In this document: positions 8,570 through 62,250 of the stretch, piece after piece
Layout of the letters: each line of letters opens with the position of its first letter
Position numbering within the stretch: the stretch's first letter is position 1
Assembly: GCA_026066175.1 (NCBI GenBank)
Contig: GCA_026066175.1_4721.1
Length of the DNA stretch: 64,000 nucleotides
Source of the DNA: a phage
Direction: 5' to 3' (one strand)
The notes under the pieces: model-generated
Database searches by the model: none
What the model saw: the letters and a program-made list of their open reading frames with translations, nothing else
What the model was told of the DNA's origin: nothing
Position numbers and translations under genes: made by a program

Positions 8570-8623
8570 GGCGGTTTCCTTTTTAACTAGGATGATTGCA
8601 TATACAGGGTTTAACGGCATAAA

Positions 8624-8641
8624 CCCTCCCCGGAGGGAGGG
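8624..8641 (-). terminator. GC-rich stem-loop with TTTATGCC tail
   Basis: CCCTCCC / GGGAGGG stem; minus-strand tail TTTATGCCG. Confidence 0.5.
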
Positions 8642-11928: not shown

Positions 11929-11947
11929 GCCCTCCGAAGTGGAGGGC
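11929..11947 (-). terminator. Stem-loop terminator
   Basis: GCCCTCC GAAGT GGAGGGC with a U-rich minus-strand tail. Confidence 0.45.
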
Positions 11948-12338: not shown

Positions 12339-12370
12339 GGTAATATAGCCGTGAAAATTATTGTATTAGC
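12339..12370 (-). promoter_or_regulatory. Promoter-like motif, copy 1 (GCTAATACAATAATTTTCACGGCTATATTACC on the minus strand)
   Basis: Shares a near-identical core TTTCACGGCTATATTAC with the copy at 43614-43645; lies ~70 nt upstream of the minus-strand start at 12267. Confidence 0.45.
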
Positions 12371-16195: not shown

Positions 16196-16220
16196 TTCTT
16201 TTCCTTCTTATCGGCATAAA

Positions 16221-16239
16221 CCCTCCCATACCGGGAGGG
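16221..16239 (-). terminator. GC-rich stem-loop with TTTATGCC tail
   Basis: CCCTCCC / GGGAGGG; minus-strand tail TTTATGCCG. Confidence 0.5.
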
Positions 16240-16244
16240 TACAA

Positions 16245-33692: not shown

Positions 33693-33766
33693 TTTAGCCT
33701 CCTCTCTTAGCTTCAGAGAATTCTCAAAATCCGTTAGTTTTGATAGACCGAGTAAGACGGCATAAA

Positions 33767-33787
33767 AGCCTCCCTCCATGGGAGGCT
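33767..33787 (-). terminator. GC-rich stem-loop with TTTTATGCC tail
   Basis: AGCCTCCC / GGGAGGCT; minus-strand tail TTTTATGCCG. Confidence 0.5.
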
Positions 33788-33800
33788 TTATTACGATAAT

Positions 33801-35362: not shown

Positions 35363-35414
35363 ACAAACATAACCCTCCTCCTTCCCTTACGGGTTGGAGG
35401 AGGGGATTATGCTG

Positions 35415-41754: not shown

Positions 41755-41794
41755 CGTCACCTCCTTTAATAAGTAGCAGGAATGCGGCATAGAA

Positions 41795-41812
41795 CCCTCC
41801 CCGGAGGGAGGG
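41795..41812 (-). terminator. GC-rich stem-loop with TTCTATGCC tail
   Basis: CCCTCCC / GGGAGGG. Confidence 0.5.
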
Positions 41813-41821
41813 TATGTAATG

Positions 41822-42379
41822 TTATTCCATCCAGACTTCTTCGTCGTAATGGTTCTCTATTGCGTTGCGCCAGAAGCGAACGGTATCCAAACTGATCGGC
41901 GTATAGAAATGTTGATCAACACCGACGTTGAGTCCGTTTGCTTTCGCTAACATACAACGATGGATATGTCCAAACAGATTGAAATACCCTGGGTTTCTTT
42001 CACTGGGTTTATGGCATAACCAATAAGACTCGTCGTTATTGATCGGCAATACCAACGGATGTTCATAAACCGCAGCAAATCCCATATCAAGGAGCTTGTC
42101 GCGGAAAGCATCAAAACTCAACCCGCTCGCCTTGCAGGCGTCCTCGTCCCAATTCCCGAGTACTAACTGAACCTGGATATCAGAACGAATGGCTTCAATG
42201 AACTCGAACTTGCCCCAATCGCCCAGATGCCACAACACGCTGTTCTTAGGGAGATTGTTGATGGCTTTCAGCATGTGTTGGTTCATGTCAGCCACGCTTG
42301 CAAACGGACGACGTGAATACACCCGGGTGCGTTCGCTGTCAAAATGCGTATCTGAAGTAAAGAAGATAGATGGGATCAT
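41822..42379 (-). CDS. Calcineurin-like metallophosphoesterase
   Basis: FFTSDTHFD (D.H), WHLGDWGK (GD), LVLGNWDED (GN.D), LFGHIHR (GH.H). Confidence 0.6.
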   Translation of the reverse strand: MIPSIFFTSDTHFDSERTRVYSRRPFASVADMNQHMLKAINNLPKNSVLWHLGDWGKFEFIEAIRSDIQVQLVLGNWDEDACKASGLSFDAFRDKLLDMGFAAVYEHPLVLPINNDESYWLCHKPSERNPGYFNLFGHIHRCMLAKANGLNVGVDQHFYTPISLDTVRFWRNAIENHYDEEVWME

Positions 42380-42858
42380 CGATCTAATTGCTCCAGAAAT
42401 GCACGCCCTGATTTACTTGCACGCAAATGTTGTTCTGCGGAAGTCAGCAGCACGTCGGTTGGCGTATAGGCTACACTGCCTTTCCACTCCGTCTTCAGCT
42501 TACCCTCTTCGATGCTGAACTGAATCAGTTGTTGGGTGCCAAAATTAAGCGTGTTGGTTGCTGCGCTGAATACACCACCCATCATGCTGTAACCAAAGAC
42601 TTTCGCATCTTCTGCATAGAAGTCGTTGTCGATCAATTTGTTCTGTAGTTCCAGCTGATCGGACGGCAGCAGTCCACCATCAAAGACACTTAGAATACCG
42701 GCTAAGCGATAAATACTCACCTTTCCTGAAACACCCACCACGTAATTGCCGTATGGTGTTTCCTCAAGCTTCGCGACGACGGTGCGATCATCGGAGGTTT
42801 TCATTGAAACCTCAATGCCATCATCGATTTCCGTTAATGTTAAATCAACAATACTCAT
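42376..42858 (-). CDS. Hypothetical protein
   Basis: 160-aa ORF, ATGA-coupled to the phosphoesterase gene. Confidence 0.45.
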   Translation of the reverse strand: MSIVDLTLTEIDDGIEVSMKTSDDRTVVAKLEETPYGNYVVGVSGKVSIYRLAGILSVFDGGLLPSDQLELQNKLIDNDFYAEDAKVFGYSMMGGVFSAATNTLNFGTQQLIQFSIEEGKLKTEWKGSVAYTPTDVLLTSAEQHLRASKSGRAFLEQLDR

Positions 42859-43613: not shown

Positions 43614-43645
43614 AGTAATATAGCCGTGAAAGGATTTGTATTGGC
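43614..43645 (-). promoter_or_regulatory. Promoter-like motif, copy 2
   Basis: GCCAATACAAATCCTTTCACGGCTATATTACT on the minus strand, ~48 nt upstream of start 43566. Confidence 0.45.
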
Positions 43646-45854: not shown

Positions 45855-45861
45855 TTAAGAA

Positions 45862-45890
45862 GCTCTGCCCGAAGGCAGAGCTTTATGCCG
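45862..45890 (+). terminator. Terminator after the SNF2 helicase gene
   Basis: GCTCTGCC CGAA GGCAGAGC followed by TTTATGCCGG. Confidence 0.6.
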
Positions 45891-47403: not shown

Positions 47404-47422
47404 AAAAAAATAGTTAGCATAA

Positions 47423-47456
47423 CTTCCTCCCTACCCATAACGGGCGGGGAGGAAGG
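47423..47456. terminator. Probable bidirectional terminator between convergent genes
   Basis: CTTCCTCCC / GGGAGGAAG; GTTTATG on the plus strand and a T9 run on the minus strand. Confidence 0.55.
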
Positions 47457-47472
47457 TTTATGTGGTTATGAC

Positions 47473-47811
47473 TTAGAACCAGAGTTCTTTCATGAAGTAG
47501 GCTTCCATATCGTAAATAAGCCACTCATCTGGGATTTCTAAAGGATCGTCTTCGGTTAAGGTGAGCATGTGCAGGGCGAACGCACGCTTAATATCTTCCA
47601 ACAGCTTATCATCACCGTAACCTTCGGGTAGTTTACGGTCAACCAGCTGGGTTTGTTTATAGACATCGCGGAACGCTTCAGGATTATGTTTATCCATCGG
47701 GAATTGTTCAGCAGCCTGAACCATCGAAAGCGTCCAGCTTACAACATTGTAACGCTCACCGTTAATTTCACTGAACTTATCATCGATTAAACAGATTTGT
47801 TGTATATTCAT
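47473..47811 (-). CDS. Hypothetical protein
   Basis: 112-aa ORF. Confidence 0.4.
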   Translation of the reverse strand: MNIQQICLIDDKFSEINGERYNVVSWTLSMVQAAEQFPMDKHNPEAFRDVYKQTQLVDRKLPEGYGDDKLLEDIKRAFALHMLTLTEDDPLEIPDEWLIYDMEAYFMKELWF

Positions 47812-48749: not shown

Positions 48750-51011
48750 TTACAATTCGAAATCTTCATCGATAACGCGTTGGGTTAGCACCTTGTCGCT
48801 GAAGAACTCCACCTTACGTTGATGGTATTTCCGATGTGCTTCAATCGACGTACACACCAGATACCAGAACGTGGGTGTCATACCCTCGAACTTCCCTTTC
48901 AGCTGACGTAGTCGACCTAACACCTGAATGTTACCAGTTCTCGACCCCATCGCTAACGTCATGAACGTCATCACCAAGTCAGGAAGATCGATTCCTGTAC
49001 CAGCCGATTTTACCGTTGTCACACTGATATCATTATCCAGTAACACCATGAAATCTTCTTCAGCGGTATAAGGACCTATCTCCAACTCAGGGATACGTTC
49101 ACTTAAGTAATGCGATAACGACTTGCACATATCAACGGTTGCACAATACACCAACATCTTCATGCCTTCCTGATATTGGTTCATGAAACCTTTGATAATA
49201 ACCGTATAGATAAAGTTGAAATAGGCGAGTTTGAGTTGCTTATTCTTCATGATAGACTGTTCGAATACCGTGTGAGAATAAGAACCTCCAAAGCCTTTGT
49301 ATCGGACTTTATCCGTACTGCGTAGTCGATACGTCACCGCATTTACCGCGATGTATTTCTTGTATTCACATTTCGCATAACGTGCTTCTTTCGGATACAT
49401 CAAATACAGCATCCGCTCGATGAACGGATCGTCAGACACCGCCGTTGCCGACAGATAAATGATTTCCGGAATATTCGCGTAACACTTCACTTTGAACAAG
49501 AAATGCAGAGCTTCGTGACATTCATCGTGGATTAACAATCCAATGCCTGTTTTCTCCCAGAACTCGACTGGATGGAAAACATAAGGTGCGACACAGTTGT
49601 TCTTTTCATAATCGGTTATATAACGCTGAAACATGTTCAGTGAGAATAACGCAATTTTGAAATCCAACTCACCTTGTTCTACCAACGTCTGAAATTCCAA
49701 CATGCTGTAACGAGGAATGTCGGGATGCGGTGGGTCAGACTGGGCTGTACCACGTATCTCGATAACATCACCTGGTTCCATACCGAAGAAACTTAGCAGT
49801 GAGCTACGCCATCCAGGCATGTACCTCGGTGACAGAATGATGCCCGTCCGTACACCACGTCGGAAGGTGATCTCCTGCGACATTGCGGTGTTGTGCGTGA
49901 CGATATGGTCTTTAATAACATAAAGGCTTTCGTCGTTGTCCACCGTGATGCAACGTGCCTTCGCTTTCACCGTCGGCACGATGCCGCCAATCGCTAAACC
50001 AGGAAGCGTGTTAACGGGAAGATCATCTGGAATCTCAATGCCGTCAGGAATAAGCTTAAGCAAATCGGAATGGTAAATTAATGTCTCCATCGTGTAACTA
50101 TTGATGGGGCATTTATACGCGATTCCCCCTAACCGATAAGCCAACTCCCAGACCTCGGTCATTATCTGCGAATCGGTGGTTCTGACCGCAAGGTGAGCCC
50201 ACCCTTCTTCAACACGCAGCACGCAACGATCTTTGATGAGTTCTCTGAAACGATCAAGACCCACGAGTTCTTTCGGTTCGTAAAGTCGGATTCTTACCGG
50301 ACGAGATCGTGACGATCTGTCATTAAGACGTTCCATGATTTCACTCGTGCTGAGCACCTTGTCAGGATCCGTGCATTGCCAGAGATGATCACCACACGCT
50401 TCAACCATTCGTCCATCTTCAAAGAAGACAGCGTAAAGCTGAATATCGTCATGATCAAAGATAGCAGTTACGTTCGTCGGTAAACCATCCGCGCCGATGA
50501 CCTCATCACCCACCTGGAGCTCACCAATCGGCTTCCAACCGCTTGGAACCTTAACGGGTGTATGGAGAGCCAATGCTTTCCCAGACCCCGTGCCTGCGGT
50601 GTTTAGGCTCATTCTGAAAGGGGTATCCTTACCCCCATCCATGTACTCCAACCATTCTTGCTGATCTTCACGCCACGGAAACTTCCAGTTCTTCACAAAC
50701 TCCACTTCCTTACCTGGAACCGGATCGTGGTAAACGATTTCCAACCACTCCTTTCGAATTCCTCGAGAAAAGATAAAATCCAAAAACGACTTCAGCTGTT
50801 CACGAAGTAAGTAGACCTCGCTATAATCGCTTCTTGCTGCGGCGTAGGTGTTGATGGTATCGGTGACCATTCTCCGTGTACGAGGGTCGCGTCGTTTCCG
50901 TAGATGCAAACAACGGTCTCGAAGGTAATGGCCAATCAAATGGGCAAATCGAAGTCCGTATCCGCTCAGCTTCATGCCATGCGAGAAGACGTCGATACGA
51001 GCTAACTTCAT
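48750..51011 (-). CDS. SF2 (DExH) helicase carrying an intein-like insertion in motif I
   Basis: Host motifs NTAGTGSGK | T (AGTGSGKT after excision), LLIHDECHEA, YLSATA, SAGTGIDLPDLV; about 229 aa inserted between K and T. Confidence 0.65.
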   Translation of the reverse strand: MKLARIDVFSHGMKLSGYGLRFAHLIGHYLRDRCLHLRKRRDPRTRRMVTDTINTYAAARSDYSEVYLLREQLKSFLDFIFSRGIRKEWLEIVYHDPVPGKEVEFVKNWKFPWREDQQEWLEYMDGGKDTPFRMSLNTAGTGSGKALALHTPVKVPSGWKPIGELQVGDEVIGADGLPTNVTAIFDHDDIQLYAVFFEDGRMVEACGDHLWQCTDPDKVLSTSEIMERLNDRSSRSRPVRIRLYEPKELVGLDRFRELIKDRCVLRVEEGWAHLAVRTTDSQIMTEVWELAYRLGGIAYKCPINSYTMETLIYHSDLLKLIPDGIEIPDDLPVNTLPGLAIGGIVPTVKAKARCITVDNDESLYVIKDHIVTHNTAMSQEITFRRGVRTGIILSPRYMPGWRSSLLSFFGMEPGDVIEIRGTAQSDPPHPDIPRYSMLEFQTLVEQGELDFKIALFSLNMFQRYITDYEKNNCVAPYVFHPVEFWEKTGIGLLIHDECHEALHFLFKVKCYANIPEIIYLSATAVSDDPFIERMLYLMYPKEARYAKCEYKKYIAVNAVTYRLRSTDKVRYKGFGGSYSHTVFEQSIMKNKQLKLAYFNFIYTVIIKGFMNQYQEGMKMLVYCATVDMCKSLSHYLSERIPELEIGPYTAEEDFMVLLDNDISVTTVKSAGTGIDLPDLVMTFMTLAMGSRTGNIQVLGRLRQLKGKFEGMTPTFWYLVCTSIEAHRKYHQRKVEFFSDKVLTQRVIDEDFEL
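49890..50576 (-). mobile_element. Intein-like element inside helicase motif I (protein residues ~146-374)
   Basis: Begins ALALHTPVKVPSGWKPIGELQVGDEV and ends CITVDNDESLYVIKDHIVTHN followed by Thr; removing it restores AGTGSGKT. Confidence 0.55.
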
Positions 51012-53122: not shown

Positions 53123-53608
53123 TTATCCTGCTTTCTTCTGAAGGCTATAAGGATCCATCGCATCGGAGCGGTCGGCAACGATGGTAAGAATGAAGCCTTT
53201 TATCTGTCTCACTTCGGTAACCCGGAGTCCCCTATCGTTACGATAAACATTTTCTTCGCCGACCAGTTTTGGTCGAATAACATAAACCCCATCAACGAAC
53301 GGAAACGTTGAATACGGATAAATACCAATACGAATAATATTCGGATGATCACCTCGAGGGTCACGTCCAAACACATCAACTCTACCGTAAATCGTGCCGT
53401 CCGCACCTTCCACTTCAATAAGGTCGTTGCGAATATCCTGAAACAGTTGTTCTAAGGTCTCTACGGGATATGTATAAGCGACGCCTAATGCAACATCCTC
53501 AATGGTCTTAACGCTAAATCCGTTAAGCCAAATAATCCGATCATCTGTCCATGTTTCTTCATACGCTGTTAATCCGTCGCCGTATATGTTGGCGTGTGCT
53601 ATCTCCAT
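53123..53608 (-). CDS. Hypothetical protein
   Basis: 161-aa ORF. Confidence 0.45.
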   Translation of the reverse strand: MEIAHANIYGDGLTAYEETWTDDRIIWLNGFSVKTIEDVALGVAYTYPVETLEQLFQDIRNDLIEVEGADGTIYGRVDVFGRDPRGDHPNIIRIGIYPYSTFPFVDGVYVIRPKLVGEENVYRNDRGLRVTEVRQIKGFILTIVADRSDAMDPYSLQKKAG

Positions 53609-53720
53609 AATCTCATTTCCTCTTCTCTGTTAGGATAAATGACATGCTGGATAACGTTGCCTTTGCATATATTGCTTTATTTCCGTCAGAAATAACGGAA
53701 AATAAAAACAACGGCATAAA

Positions 53721-53752
53721 CCCCTCCCACCTCCACATGGGAGAGGGAGGGT
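53721..53752 (-). terminator. GC-rich stem-loop with TTTATGCC tail
   Basis: CCCTCCCACCTCC / GGGAGAGGGAGGG (imperfect); minus-strand tail GTTTATGCCG. Confidence 0.45.
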
Positions 53753-53757
53753 GTATG

Positions 53758-54120
53758 TTATTCTACATTATCTTCTACGGCTTCGGATTCATCCGCTTCT
53801 GCGAAGCTTTCCTGAACCGCAGTGGTATCCCAGTTCGCTGCGTAATCAGCCATGGCTTCGCGCAGCGCTTCTTCACCCGCATCACCAGCCAGGTCAAGTA
53901 CAACCAACCCTTGTGCGACGTTCTGCGCTACGGTATCGATAACCGTTGCATCCTCTTCAAAGCTACGTACCGGTTCAATGGTACCAACATCAACAGCGTA
54001 GTTCGTGGTTGCGGTAAGGACAGCAACCTGTAATGCGTTGCTGTCTTCGTCATGAAGTGCTGCTTCAATACCGATTGGACGGGCCAGTTCTTGCAGTGTC
54101 AATTTACGAATTAAGTTCAT
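53758..54120 (-). CDS. Highly acidic small protein
   Basis: 120 aa, Asp/Glu-rich throughout (e.g. EADESEAVEDNVE at the C-terminus). Confidence 0.45.
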   Translation of the reverse strand: MNLIRKLTLQELARPIGIEAALHDEDSNALQVAVLTATTNYAVDVGTIEPVRSFEEDATVIDTVAQNVAQGLVVLDLAGDAGEEALREAMADYAANWDTTAVQESFAEADESEAVEDNVE

Positions 54121-54143
54121 TATGTCTTTTCCTCAGGTGAATG

Positions 54144-54494
54144 TTAGCAATCGTTTAAAACTTTTTCGATACGATGGTTGACAAGCTCATTGAACGACTC
54201 TTCTGCTTGTTCGATAATTTCATCAACGTCAATATCTAATCGTTGGGGTTGGATGACGTGCTCTTTCATGGTTTCCAGCCAGTATTCGGCTTTAATCATG
54301 ACGTTAACAACATGTTCAACCTGACTGCGTAGGTCGATAATCTGGCAATCAGGATTATTAATATCGATGACGTGTCCGTGGTGGTTGATAAACCCAAGCT
54401 TATTCGATGCTTTTACGGCATCGCGAGTAAGTTCTTGCAGGATTAACGCATTTACGTAATTCACTGCGACGGAACGATTTTCTTTATCACTCAT
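54144..54494 (-). CDS. Hypothetical protein
   Basis: Start moved to MSDKENRS (AAGAGGA upstream). Confidence 0.4.
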   Translation of the reverse strand: MSDKENRSVAVNYVNALILQELTRDAVKASNKLGFINHHGHVIDINNPDCQIIDLRSQVEHVVNVMIKAEYWLETMKEHVIQPQRLDIDVDEIIEQAEESFNELVNHRIEKVLNDC

Positions 54495-54612
54495 ACCAGG
54501 GATCCTCTTTAAGTGTTCACATTCTAGTGTTAAGCAGTTAAAATAAACCGTTCCTTTAATCAGCATAAGCATCCTCCTCCCACCGCACGGGCAGGAGGAG
54601 GCGTAATATGCG

Positions 54613-55023
54613 TCAGAAAGGAAGACGATCTTTATATTCTAACAACGTATCTTCGAAGCAGGCTGCTAGCTCAGACTGCAATTCGATTCGACCTTGTTCA
54701 CCAAACAACTCCAACAGCATCAATCCACGCGCTGTTTTCGTTGCGACCTCTTCACAAATACAAAGGTCGTGTGCAACGTCATCACCAACATCCTTACGTA
54801 ACTGTGCTGCAATGGGCTTAAGATTGCCGTCCTCGTCGTATTCGTCACGAAACGCATCATAAGCCGCATCAATGTTCGCCGTCCGCGTCAATCCTTCGGA
54901 ATCTCGCCAGTCTCGATAGAGTCCAAGCAGACGATTGTGATTCTTCGTCTTGACGTTAGGTGCTGGAAGATTGCGCAATAGATGCGGAGTAATCAATGCA
55001 ATCACGCTGTCTGAATGATCCAT
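54613..55023 (-). CDS. Hypothetical protein
   Basis: Start moved to MDHSDSVIAL (GAGGT upstream). Confidence 0.4.
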   Translation of the reverse strand: MDHSDSVIALITPHLLRNLPAPNVKTKNHNRLLGLYRDWRDSEGLTRTANIDAAYDAFRDEYDEDGNLKPIAAQLRKDVGDDVAHDLCICEEVATKTARGLMLLELFGEQGRIELQSELAACFEDTLLEYKDRLPF

Positions 55024-57202: not shown

Positions 57203-57233
57203 AGGACTTCCTATTATCGAATTGAGGTACGTC

Positions 57234-57587
57234 ATGTCTAATACGCCCCTGAACGACTTTCTTAAGACAAACCCCGATGACCTCATCCACAACCTTGATT
57301 TCAGGAACGTTGTTGAGATGCATCTGGAATATTTCAAAAATGCCGGTTTGGTTTCTACGATAGACATACCACCCGAACGCGCCTACGAATTCGATGGTAA
57401 CTTTTATGGATTATGTCGGGTTATGCTTGGCGAAGGCAGTGAACCTATGCACTGGGTTACCCTAAGAATCAACGGTTATCGTGATCCTACGGAATACACC
57501 GCCGATGTCCTAACGATGAAGATTGTCGATTCAAGCGCCATCAACACGTTAAAACAGCAATATCGCACAATCCACTACAGCGCTTAA
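57234..57587 (+). CDS. Hypothetical protein
   Basis: Start at MSNTPLNDFL with GAGGT upstream; followed by a plus-oriented terminator hairpin. Confidence 0.45.
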   Translation: MSNTPLNDFLKTNPDDLIHNLDFRNVVEMHLEYFKNAGLVSTIDIPPERAYEFDGNFYGLCRVMLGEGSEPMHWVTLRINGYRDPTEYTADVLTMKIVDSSAINTLKQQYRTIHYSA

Positions 57588-62218: not shown

Positions 62219-62250
62219 GGTAATATAAGCGTGAATAATTTTGGATTCCT
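62219..62250 (-). promoter_or_regulatory. Promoter-like motif, copy 3 (degenerate)
   Basis: AGGAATCCAAAATTATTCACGCTTATATTACC on the minus strand, ~55 nt upstream of start 62164. Confidence 0.35.

Follow-up and report, generated by a model that had tools for sequence, protein, structure and literature searches.

What is the role of a small, extremely acidic protein that a nucleus-forming phage encodes among the genes of its RNA polymerase? The question arises at positions 53758-54120 of a 64,000-nucleotide stretch of phage DNA (contig GCA_026066175.1_4721.1; the whole stretch is here called the window), which comes from a relative of the nucleus-forming jumbo phage Escherichia phage Goslar and shares about 85% nucleotide identity with it over the region of this gene. 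A sequence-only reading of the locus had taken the product for a possible mimic of DNA.

The acidic gene and its family

The gene lies on the minus strand, with its ATG at 54120 and a TAA stop codon at 53758-53760, and encodes 120 amino acids; the sequence-only reading had called the same frame, and the peptide that it quoted is present in the translation. The Goslar ortholog, gp168 (HOV27_gp168, YP_009820853.1), is also 120 aa long, with 90% amino acid identity, the same neighbours and the same flanking hairpins, but it differs at 11 positions in the C-terminal 17 residues. Comparison with Goslar gp168 shows 40 synonymous changes in codons 1-103 against 2 non-synonymous ones (dN/dS 0.009), and 15 non-synonymous changes in the 17 codons 104-120; the dN/dS of the whole gene is 0.059. 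The corresponding values are 0.009 for the non-virion RNA polymerase beta subunit, 0.007 for the helicase and 0.107 for the median of the window. Because dN/dS is 0.009 in codons 1-103 and a Shine-Dalgarno sequence, GAGGA (54130-54134, minus strand; conserved in Goslar and L005), stands 9 nt 5' of the ATG, this is a real gene and not a chance frame. To judge from these differences, residues 1-103 are under very strong purifying selection and the tail is free to change while staying acidic. A core dN/dS as low as that of the RNA polymerase and the helicase points to a fixed phage-internal partner rather than an arms-race target. An antisense ORF of 129 aa (53644-54033, plus strand) overlaps the acidic gene and is longer than it; with a dN/dS of 0.51 over a 36-residue match it was ruled out as a gene and is a shadow frame, which could misguide gene callers.

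The family is very narrow. A word-indexed search of 5.8 billion proteins, run with the single sequence and with a profile, returned about two dozen members, none below 87% identity and most of them encoded on contigs about 240 kb long. An exhaustive search of 1.84 billion representatives found one further homolog, P0024, at 55% identity, and a scan of IMG/VR added solely Goslar itself and one close relative. P0024 retains the N-terminal segment, the motif TATTNYAVDVGTIE, the acidic tail and the gene order polymerase beta, gp170-like, gp168-like. Within the collections searched, the family is confined to Goslar-like phages and this one divergent relative. Five of the close homologs (P0001, P0012, P0013, P0015 and P0020) are on contigs of about 240 kb filed under assemblies of Shigella sonnei, Shigella flexneri, E. 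coli O157 and Salmonella Enteritidis; Goslar-like phage genomes apparently accompany bacterial isolates, as a carrier state or as contamination.

Calculation of pI and charge confirmed the strong acidity that had been claimed for the protein: its pI is 4.05, and 26 Asp and Glu residues stand against 5 Lys and Arg, giving a net charge of -21. Its net charge per residue (-0.175) is the most negative among the 88 genes of the window (mean 0.004, sd 0.062, z = -2.9), mainly because basic residues are scarce (4.2%) rather than because acidic ones are unusually numerous. The accompanying statement that there are no basic patches holds after residue 14, where R52 and R87 alone are basic, but not in residues 1-14, which contain R5, K6 and R14; the net charge is +2 over residues 1-14 and +1 over residues 1-20. 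These first 14 codons (MNLIRKLTLQELAR; 54079-54120, minus strand) encode the sole net-positive segment, which is kept in P0024, and M1, N2, L3, I4, K6, L9, E11, R14 and P15 are invariant throughout the family, P0024 included. The segment is possibly one of targeting or anchoring. Codons 20-103 (53812-54063, minus strand) encode a constrained acidic core that holds the invariant motif TATTNYAVDVGTIE and falls on the folded side of a charge-hydropathy plot. Codons 104-120 (53761-53811, minus strand) encode a variable polyacidic C-terminal tail that falls on the disordered side and is probably disordered; its acidity is preserved in 21/21 family members.

Searches for known relatives were negative. 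An hmmscan against Pfam-A gave no family at E ≤ 0.1, with Ocr (PF08684), ArdA (PF07275), Ugi and Gam among the families covered and likewise no match to the inner-body PF12699 or DUF7941 domains, and sequence searches of PHROG, NCBIfam and the PDB gave nothing significant. AlphaFold2 models had a mean pLDDT of 37.7 with 20 sequences and 41.8 with 21 sequences including P0024, too low to use. For an AlphaFold3 model of Goslar gp168, the authors of a 2026 preprint on the Goslar virion reported no structural match (doi 10.64898/2026.04.21.720040). The family is without a characterised relative, and its Goslar member had already been flagged, as function-less, in that preprint.

Genomic setting and flanking hairpins

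The acidic gene sits between the orthologs of gp165 and gp171, both labelled as non-virion RNA polymerase subunits in the Goslar proteomics tables. The same two polymerase genes are adjacent in seven jumbo phages of different genera (Desertfox, 2050HW, Aphrodite1, Phobos, N1M2, SPFM13 and Aeromonas D3), with gaps of about 20-190 bp where the match covers both gene ends. In Goslar-like phages they are separated by 2 kb with five small genes (gp166-gp170; 53123-55023 in the window), so the acidic gene is part of a lineage-specific island. Directly upstream and in the same orientation lies a gp169-like gene of 116 aa (54144-54494, minus strand). Its start at 54494 is conserved and has a Shine-Dalgarno sequence, and its length is that of Goslar gp169; a 142-aa ORF at 54144-54572 on the same strand is over-extended, its first ATGs lying inside the upstream hairpin and TATG element. 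The phage of P0024 is without a gp169-like gene, which weakens the idea of gp169 as an obligatory partner of gp168. Two genes upstream of the acidic gene is a gp170-like gene of 136 aa (54613-55023, minus strand). Its product matches the acidic protein with a BLASTP E-value of 5e-5 and an hhalign E-value of 2.7e-4 (probability 42%), and at E 0.006-0.009 it is the best non-self match among the ORFs of the window; it is a weak paralog across the C-terminal half.

Conserved hairpins flank this part of the island. A G+C-rich hairpin, CACCCTCCCTCTCC-CATG-TGGAGGTGGGAGGGG (53712-53753, minus strand), adjoins the acidic gene at its 3' end, just past the stop codon, and TATGCCG follows it; the folding energy of 53680-53765 is -34.1 kcal/mol (z = -4.8). 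This hairpin and its TATG are invariant in three phages, the bases between them varying, and the element resembles a terminator joined to a TATG motif of the phiKZ type. A similar hairpin, CCTCCTCCTGCCC-GTGC-GGTGGGAGGAGG with TTATG (54561-54601, minus strand), divides the gp170-like gene from the gp169-like and gp168-like pair. Here the differences among the three phages are in or beside the loop, with one atop the 5' arm, and the TATG is again invariant. Both intergenic regions are more conserved in the three phages than the synonymous sites of the genes, and a terminator-like hairpin also stands upstream of the gp168-like gene in the divergent relative. In this arrangement, the gp169-like and gp168-like genes form a two-gene unit bracketed by hairpin and TATG elements.

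In phiKZ, TATG, with the G as start site, is the core of the late promoters read by the non-virion polymerase (PMC4666361), and a combined function of the hairpin and TATG as terminator plus promoter is plausible. We did not accept the element as a pure late promoter: the one at 47404-47472 is without a downstream gene, and gp166, which follows such an element, does not count as a virion protein and becomes more abundant when ChmC is knocked down. The element recurs in the window as a hairpin of the CCCTCCC...GGGAGGG type on the coding strand, followed directly by (T)TTATGCCG. It is found on the minus strand at 8615-8641, 16212-16240, 33758-33789, 41785-41813 and 53712-53753 and on the plus strand at about 45860-45890, with variants at 54561-54601, 11929-11947, 35363-35414 and 47404-47472, and 6 of the 11 TATGCCG sites in the window come after such a hairpin. 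Its role may be that of a conserved terminator, that of a terminator joined to a late promoter with the phiKZ-type TATG, or both. A scan for sigma-70 promoters and simple terminators, of a kind that misses bulged hairpins, gave counts not above shuffled expectation.

The 149-nt region 3' of the acidic gene (53609-53757) is nearly invariant in the three phages, while the synonymous sites of the gene have diverged (dS about 0.9). It contains a second conserved hairpin (TTTTCCGTTATTTCTGACGGAAA; 53680-53702, minus strand). The Goslar annotation places here a 31-aa ORF, gp167, but an indel shifts its frame between phages, and the conservation therefore looks non-coding, made up of the two hairpins and a conserved AAATAAAGCAATATATGCAAAGG stretch. 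Rfam gave no match for the conserved intergenic hairpins or for this region.

A 16-mer, TTCACG(GC/CT)TATATTAC, occurs three times in the window against 0.18 expected (12340-12355, 43615-43630 and 62220-62235, all on the minus strand). Each copy is intergenic and heads a block of minus-strand genes, one of which is the non-virion RNA polymerase cluster. The 16-mer is a candidate for an early promoter, one read by the virion RNA polymerase, and we take it to resemble the phiKZ early consensus. The acidic gene is not in an early-promoter position: the nearest copy (62220-62235) is about 8 kb upstream, with several hairpins between.

Two further features of the neighbourhood were noted. The only plus-strand gene in the polymerase cluster (57222-57587) corresponds by position to Goslar gp172, assigned to the inner baseplate at 6 copies (doi 10.64898/2026.04.21.720040), and would therefore be a structural gene embedded antisense in the cluster. 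The helicase gene (48750-51011) encodes 753 aa in the window and 524 aa in Goslar. The 229 additional residues (49890-50576, minus strand) interrupt the Walker A motif (GTGSGK / ALALHT...IVTHN / TAMSQE), end like an intein (Ala1, C-terminal HN, +1 Thr) and give a weak match to a Hint domain, and the flanking exteins are 98-99% identical to Goslar; the insertion is probably an intein absent from Goslar.

The Goslar ortholog in purified virions

Data on particles come from one preprint and concern the Goslar ortholog, not the window phage itself. Virions purified by PEG and CsCl were analysed there by label-free mass spectrometry (doi 10.64898/2026.04.21.720040). Goslar gp168 was detected with 8 peptides (50% coverage) at an estimated 219 copies (range 146-344), an estimate that leans on one peptide, EAMADYAANWDTTAVQK, with 228,000 of the 301,000 total area. 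The protein is described solely as abundant and virion-associated, and it is among ten function-less proteins at more than 200 copies that lie outside the 28-protein cryo-EM atomic model; the GFP tagging in the same study covered only gp60, gp61, gp208 and gp209 (doi 10.64898/2026.04.21.720040). The other products of the island were estimated at about 92 (gp169), 3 (gp170) and 1 (gp166) copies per virion, and the polymerase subunits gp165, gp171 and gp175 at no more than 1 (doi 10.64898/2026.04.21.720040). The low copies of gp170 and gp166 relative to gp169 and gp168 match the hairpin-bounded gp169-gp168 unit. According to the authors, the virions were accompanied through purification by nucleus fragments and PhuZ filaments, chimallin amounting to about 126 copies and PhuZ to about 171 (doi 10.64898/2026.04.21.720040).

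We compared the virion preparation with infected-cell lysate at 110 min (TMT, Table S4, doi 10.1101/2023.09.22.559000), relative to the major capsid protein. In this comparison, which sets label-free quantification against TMT from different experiments and quantifies gp168 poorly because of its few tryptic sites, gp168 was enriched 36-fold in virions and gp169 62-fold. Two other abundant, unmodelled proteins, gp158 and gp58, were enriched 20-fold and 6-fold, respectively, and gp58 has been shown to be injected. The ratios for PhuZ and chimallin were 0.9-fold and 0.5-fold, and that for the non-virion RNA polymerase subunit gp171, undetected in virions, was zero. Thus gp168 is more abundant than chimallin in the virion sample, whereas in the lysate chimallin leads by about 40-fold. 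The direction is clear despite the mixed quantification, and gp168 behaves as cargo, not as carry-over. Its 219 copies and 36-fold enrichment, against 0.5-0.9-fold for chimallin and PhuZ, place it in the operational class of virion-packaged chimallivirus proteins.

On knock-down of ChmC, the ratios reported for gp168 were 1.13/0.88 and 0.93/0.69, for the capsid 0.78/0.63 and for chimallin 0.98/0.91 (doi 10.1101/2023.09.22.559000). The response of gp168 is intermediate between early and late behaviour, and its timing is ambiguous. Prohead proteases of the phiKZ type cut at S/A/G-x-E. The acidic protein has candidate sites, among them G17-I18-E19, which is not kept in P0024, and no AALHDED... 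peptide from a cut after E19 is present in the part of the Goslar virion peptide table that the analysis covered.

The window also encodes orthologs of Goslar gp158 (42376-42858, minus strand; about 926 copies per virion in Goslar) and gp162 (47473-47811, minus strand; about 127 copies). Both products are small and acidic, with pI 4.5 and 4.4, and acidic character may be common to several unmodelled high-copy virion proteins of the window phage.

Proposed packaged cargo and the alternatives

The reading that we favour, with somewhat less than even confidence, is that the acidic protein is high-copy virion cargo, most likely internal to the capsid and outside the symmetric shell. It builds on a real gene with a clear pattern of conservation and a defined place in the genome, whose Goslar ortholog is both present and enriched in CsCl-purified virions; an internal location, ejection and any decoy activity are inferred. 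The protein would be produced from its own two-gene unit (gp169-like and gp168-like), which interrupts the non-virion RNA polymerase cluster, and a few hundred copies would be loaded into each virion. The conserved N-terminal amphipathic segment, the obvious docking candidate, would dock it during head assembly, and the strong conservation of the core speaks for a constant contact within the phage. With basic residues nearly absent, the folded acidic core and polyacidic tail would keep the protein from sticking to the packaged DNA. It would then exit with the genome at injection and, once released, might serve for example as a polyanionic decoy for host nucleic-acid-binding proteins.

Packaged or injected proteins of chimalliviruses offer the nearest comparison: Goslar gp58 and gp53 and phiKZ gp92-97 ('inner body', PF12699 family); gp22 and gp23 (DUF7941); and gp60 and gp61. 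Like these, gp168 is found at hundreds of copies in purified virions, lies outside the symmetric cryo-EM model and lacks an assigned function. Unlike them, it has neither PF12699 nor DUF7941, is far smaller, and has its gene in the RNA polymerase cluster rather than in the block of structural genes. T4 IPI* and P1 DarA/DarB are small or accessory proteins present at high copy in the head and delivered with the DNA. The acidic protein has no sequence relation to them, and it counts against packaging that no capsid-targeting or other packaging signal and no protease site could be demonstrated in it. The location of the gene also counts against packaging, as the non-virion RNA polymerase genes around it are early genes in phiKZ (PMC4666361), and so do the nucleus fragments and PhuZ filaments in the preparation, the dependence of the copy estimate mostly on one peptide and the intermediate response to ChmC.

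Several of these points would suit a nucleus- or polymerase-associated protein that merely co-purifies with virions, which is the best surviving alternative and in our view an unlikely one. The gene lies between polymerase subunit genes with a weak paralog (gp170-like) nearby, the preparation contains nucleus fragments and PhuZ filaments, and the response to ChmC knock-down is weak. Yet the polymerase proteins themselves (gp165, gp171 and gp175) are at no more than one copy in the same preparation, gp168 rises from about 40-fold below chimallin in lysate to above it in virions, and the polymerase of other jumbo phages works without the island.

The protein could instead be external, as a flexible or sub-stoichiometric decoration of the capsid or tail, or a remnant of assembly or scaffolding, with no role after injection; we rank this next and consider it improbable. 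Small size and acidity are common traits of scaffold and decoration proteins, the strong conservation fits a structural contact, and the copy range of 146-344 brackets both the 276-282 tail tube and sheath subunits and, by our arithmetic, the 260 hexamers of a T=27 capsid. Nevertheless, gp168 is unseen in the 3.2-4.2 Å maps of any substructure, and there is no sign of a symmetric binding site or of protease processing.

The proposal of the sequence-only reading, that the protein is a DNA mimic which inhibits a restriction enzyme, for example one of type I, or another DNA-binding protein of the host, comes third, and we regard it as doubtful. Such a mimic of DNA or other nucleic acid could act early inside the cell or as a decoy delivered by the virion. 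Ocr (T7 gp0.3) is small and extremely acidic with few basic residues, and the acidic protein resembles it in size, extreme acidity and scarcity of basic residues. The net charge of -21, the few basic residues past residue 14 and a tail that stays acidic although its sequence varies all fit a mimic, as does a gene in a lineage-specific accessory island. Polyacidic C-terminal tails are also carried by the DNA-binding proteins T7 gp2.5 and bacterial SSB, and the tail of the acidic protein, short, predicted to be disordered and drifting in sequence with charge kept, is like theirs; here, however, the body of the protein is acidic too. High-copy presence in the virion would deliver the protein at injection, and T4 IPI* and P1 Dar are anti-restriction proteins delivered by packaging in the virion.

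Several observations weigh against mimicry. The protein gives no match to Ocr, ArdA or any other profile and, in the preprint, no structural match; its core is extremely conserved, unlike typical counter-defence genes; and, unlike genes for Ocr and ArdA, its gene is not in an early-gene position, lying in the non-virion RNA polymerase cluster and not beside an early-promoter-like motif. Moreover, the virion preprint describes chimallivirus DNA as already shielded from restriction enzymes, inside a vesicle and a protein nucleus (doi 10.64898/2026.04.21.720040). Core conservation, gene position and the phage's own shielding of its DNA argue against an Ocr-type, rapidly evolving, first-expressed anti-restriction gene.

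Packaging and mimicry can also be joined. About 200 copies of gp168 per particle would enter the early infection vesicle or the host cell together with the genome and, as a polyanionic decoy, block the sites at which a host factor binds nucleic acid in the minutes until a phage nucleus has formed; the protein would then represent a new fold and family of DNA or RNA mimic. The target might be a nuclease, a sensor of restriction or another defence, a nucleoid protein or RNase E. We hold this specific combination of delivery, decoy and target, as a whole, to be slightly more doubtful than mimicry in general.

That the protein is an acidic regulator like RraA or Dip, acting on host RNase E or the RNA degradosome, is very improbable. 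A weak NCBIfam match to RraA (TIGR01935; E 0.02, residues 24-106 against profile positions 6-92) and a similar local strand-helix-strand pattern fit with phage mRNAs that chimalliviruses leave exposed in the cytoplasm (doi 10.1101/2023.09.22.559000); but the match scores 14.7 bits against a cut-off of 123.8, Pfam gave no match, RraA-like families included, and the PDB profile search returned no RraA chain. Membership of the RraA family itself was rejected, with an hhalign probability of 0.7% against E. coli RraA.

High-copy cargo remains the reading that we prefer, and packaged chimallivirus proteins are a kind already known, to which a family with no characterised relative would be added. Should the protein merely be structural filler, the finding would be ordinary. 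If it is a delivered nucleic-acid decoy, it would found a new mimic family and add a layer to the defence evasion of chimalliviruses. Nucleus-forming phages survive the first minutes of infection on the contents of the particle alone, and most of their high-copy packaged proteins lack an assigned function. A protein that is conserved as strongly as a polymerase, lineage-specific, nearly free of basic residues and apparently packaged is thus a compact candidate, and a tractable one, for work on the function of such cargo.
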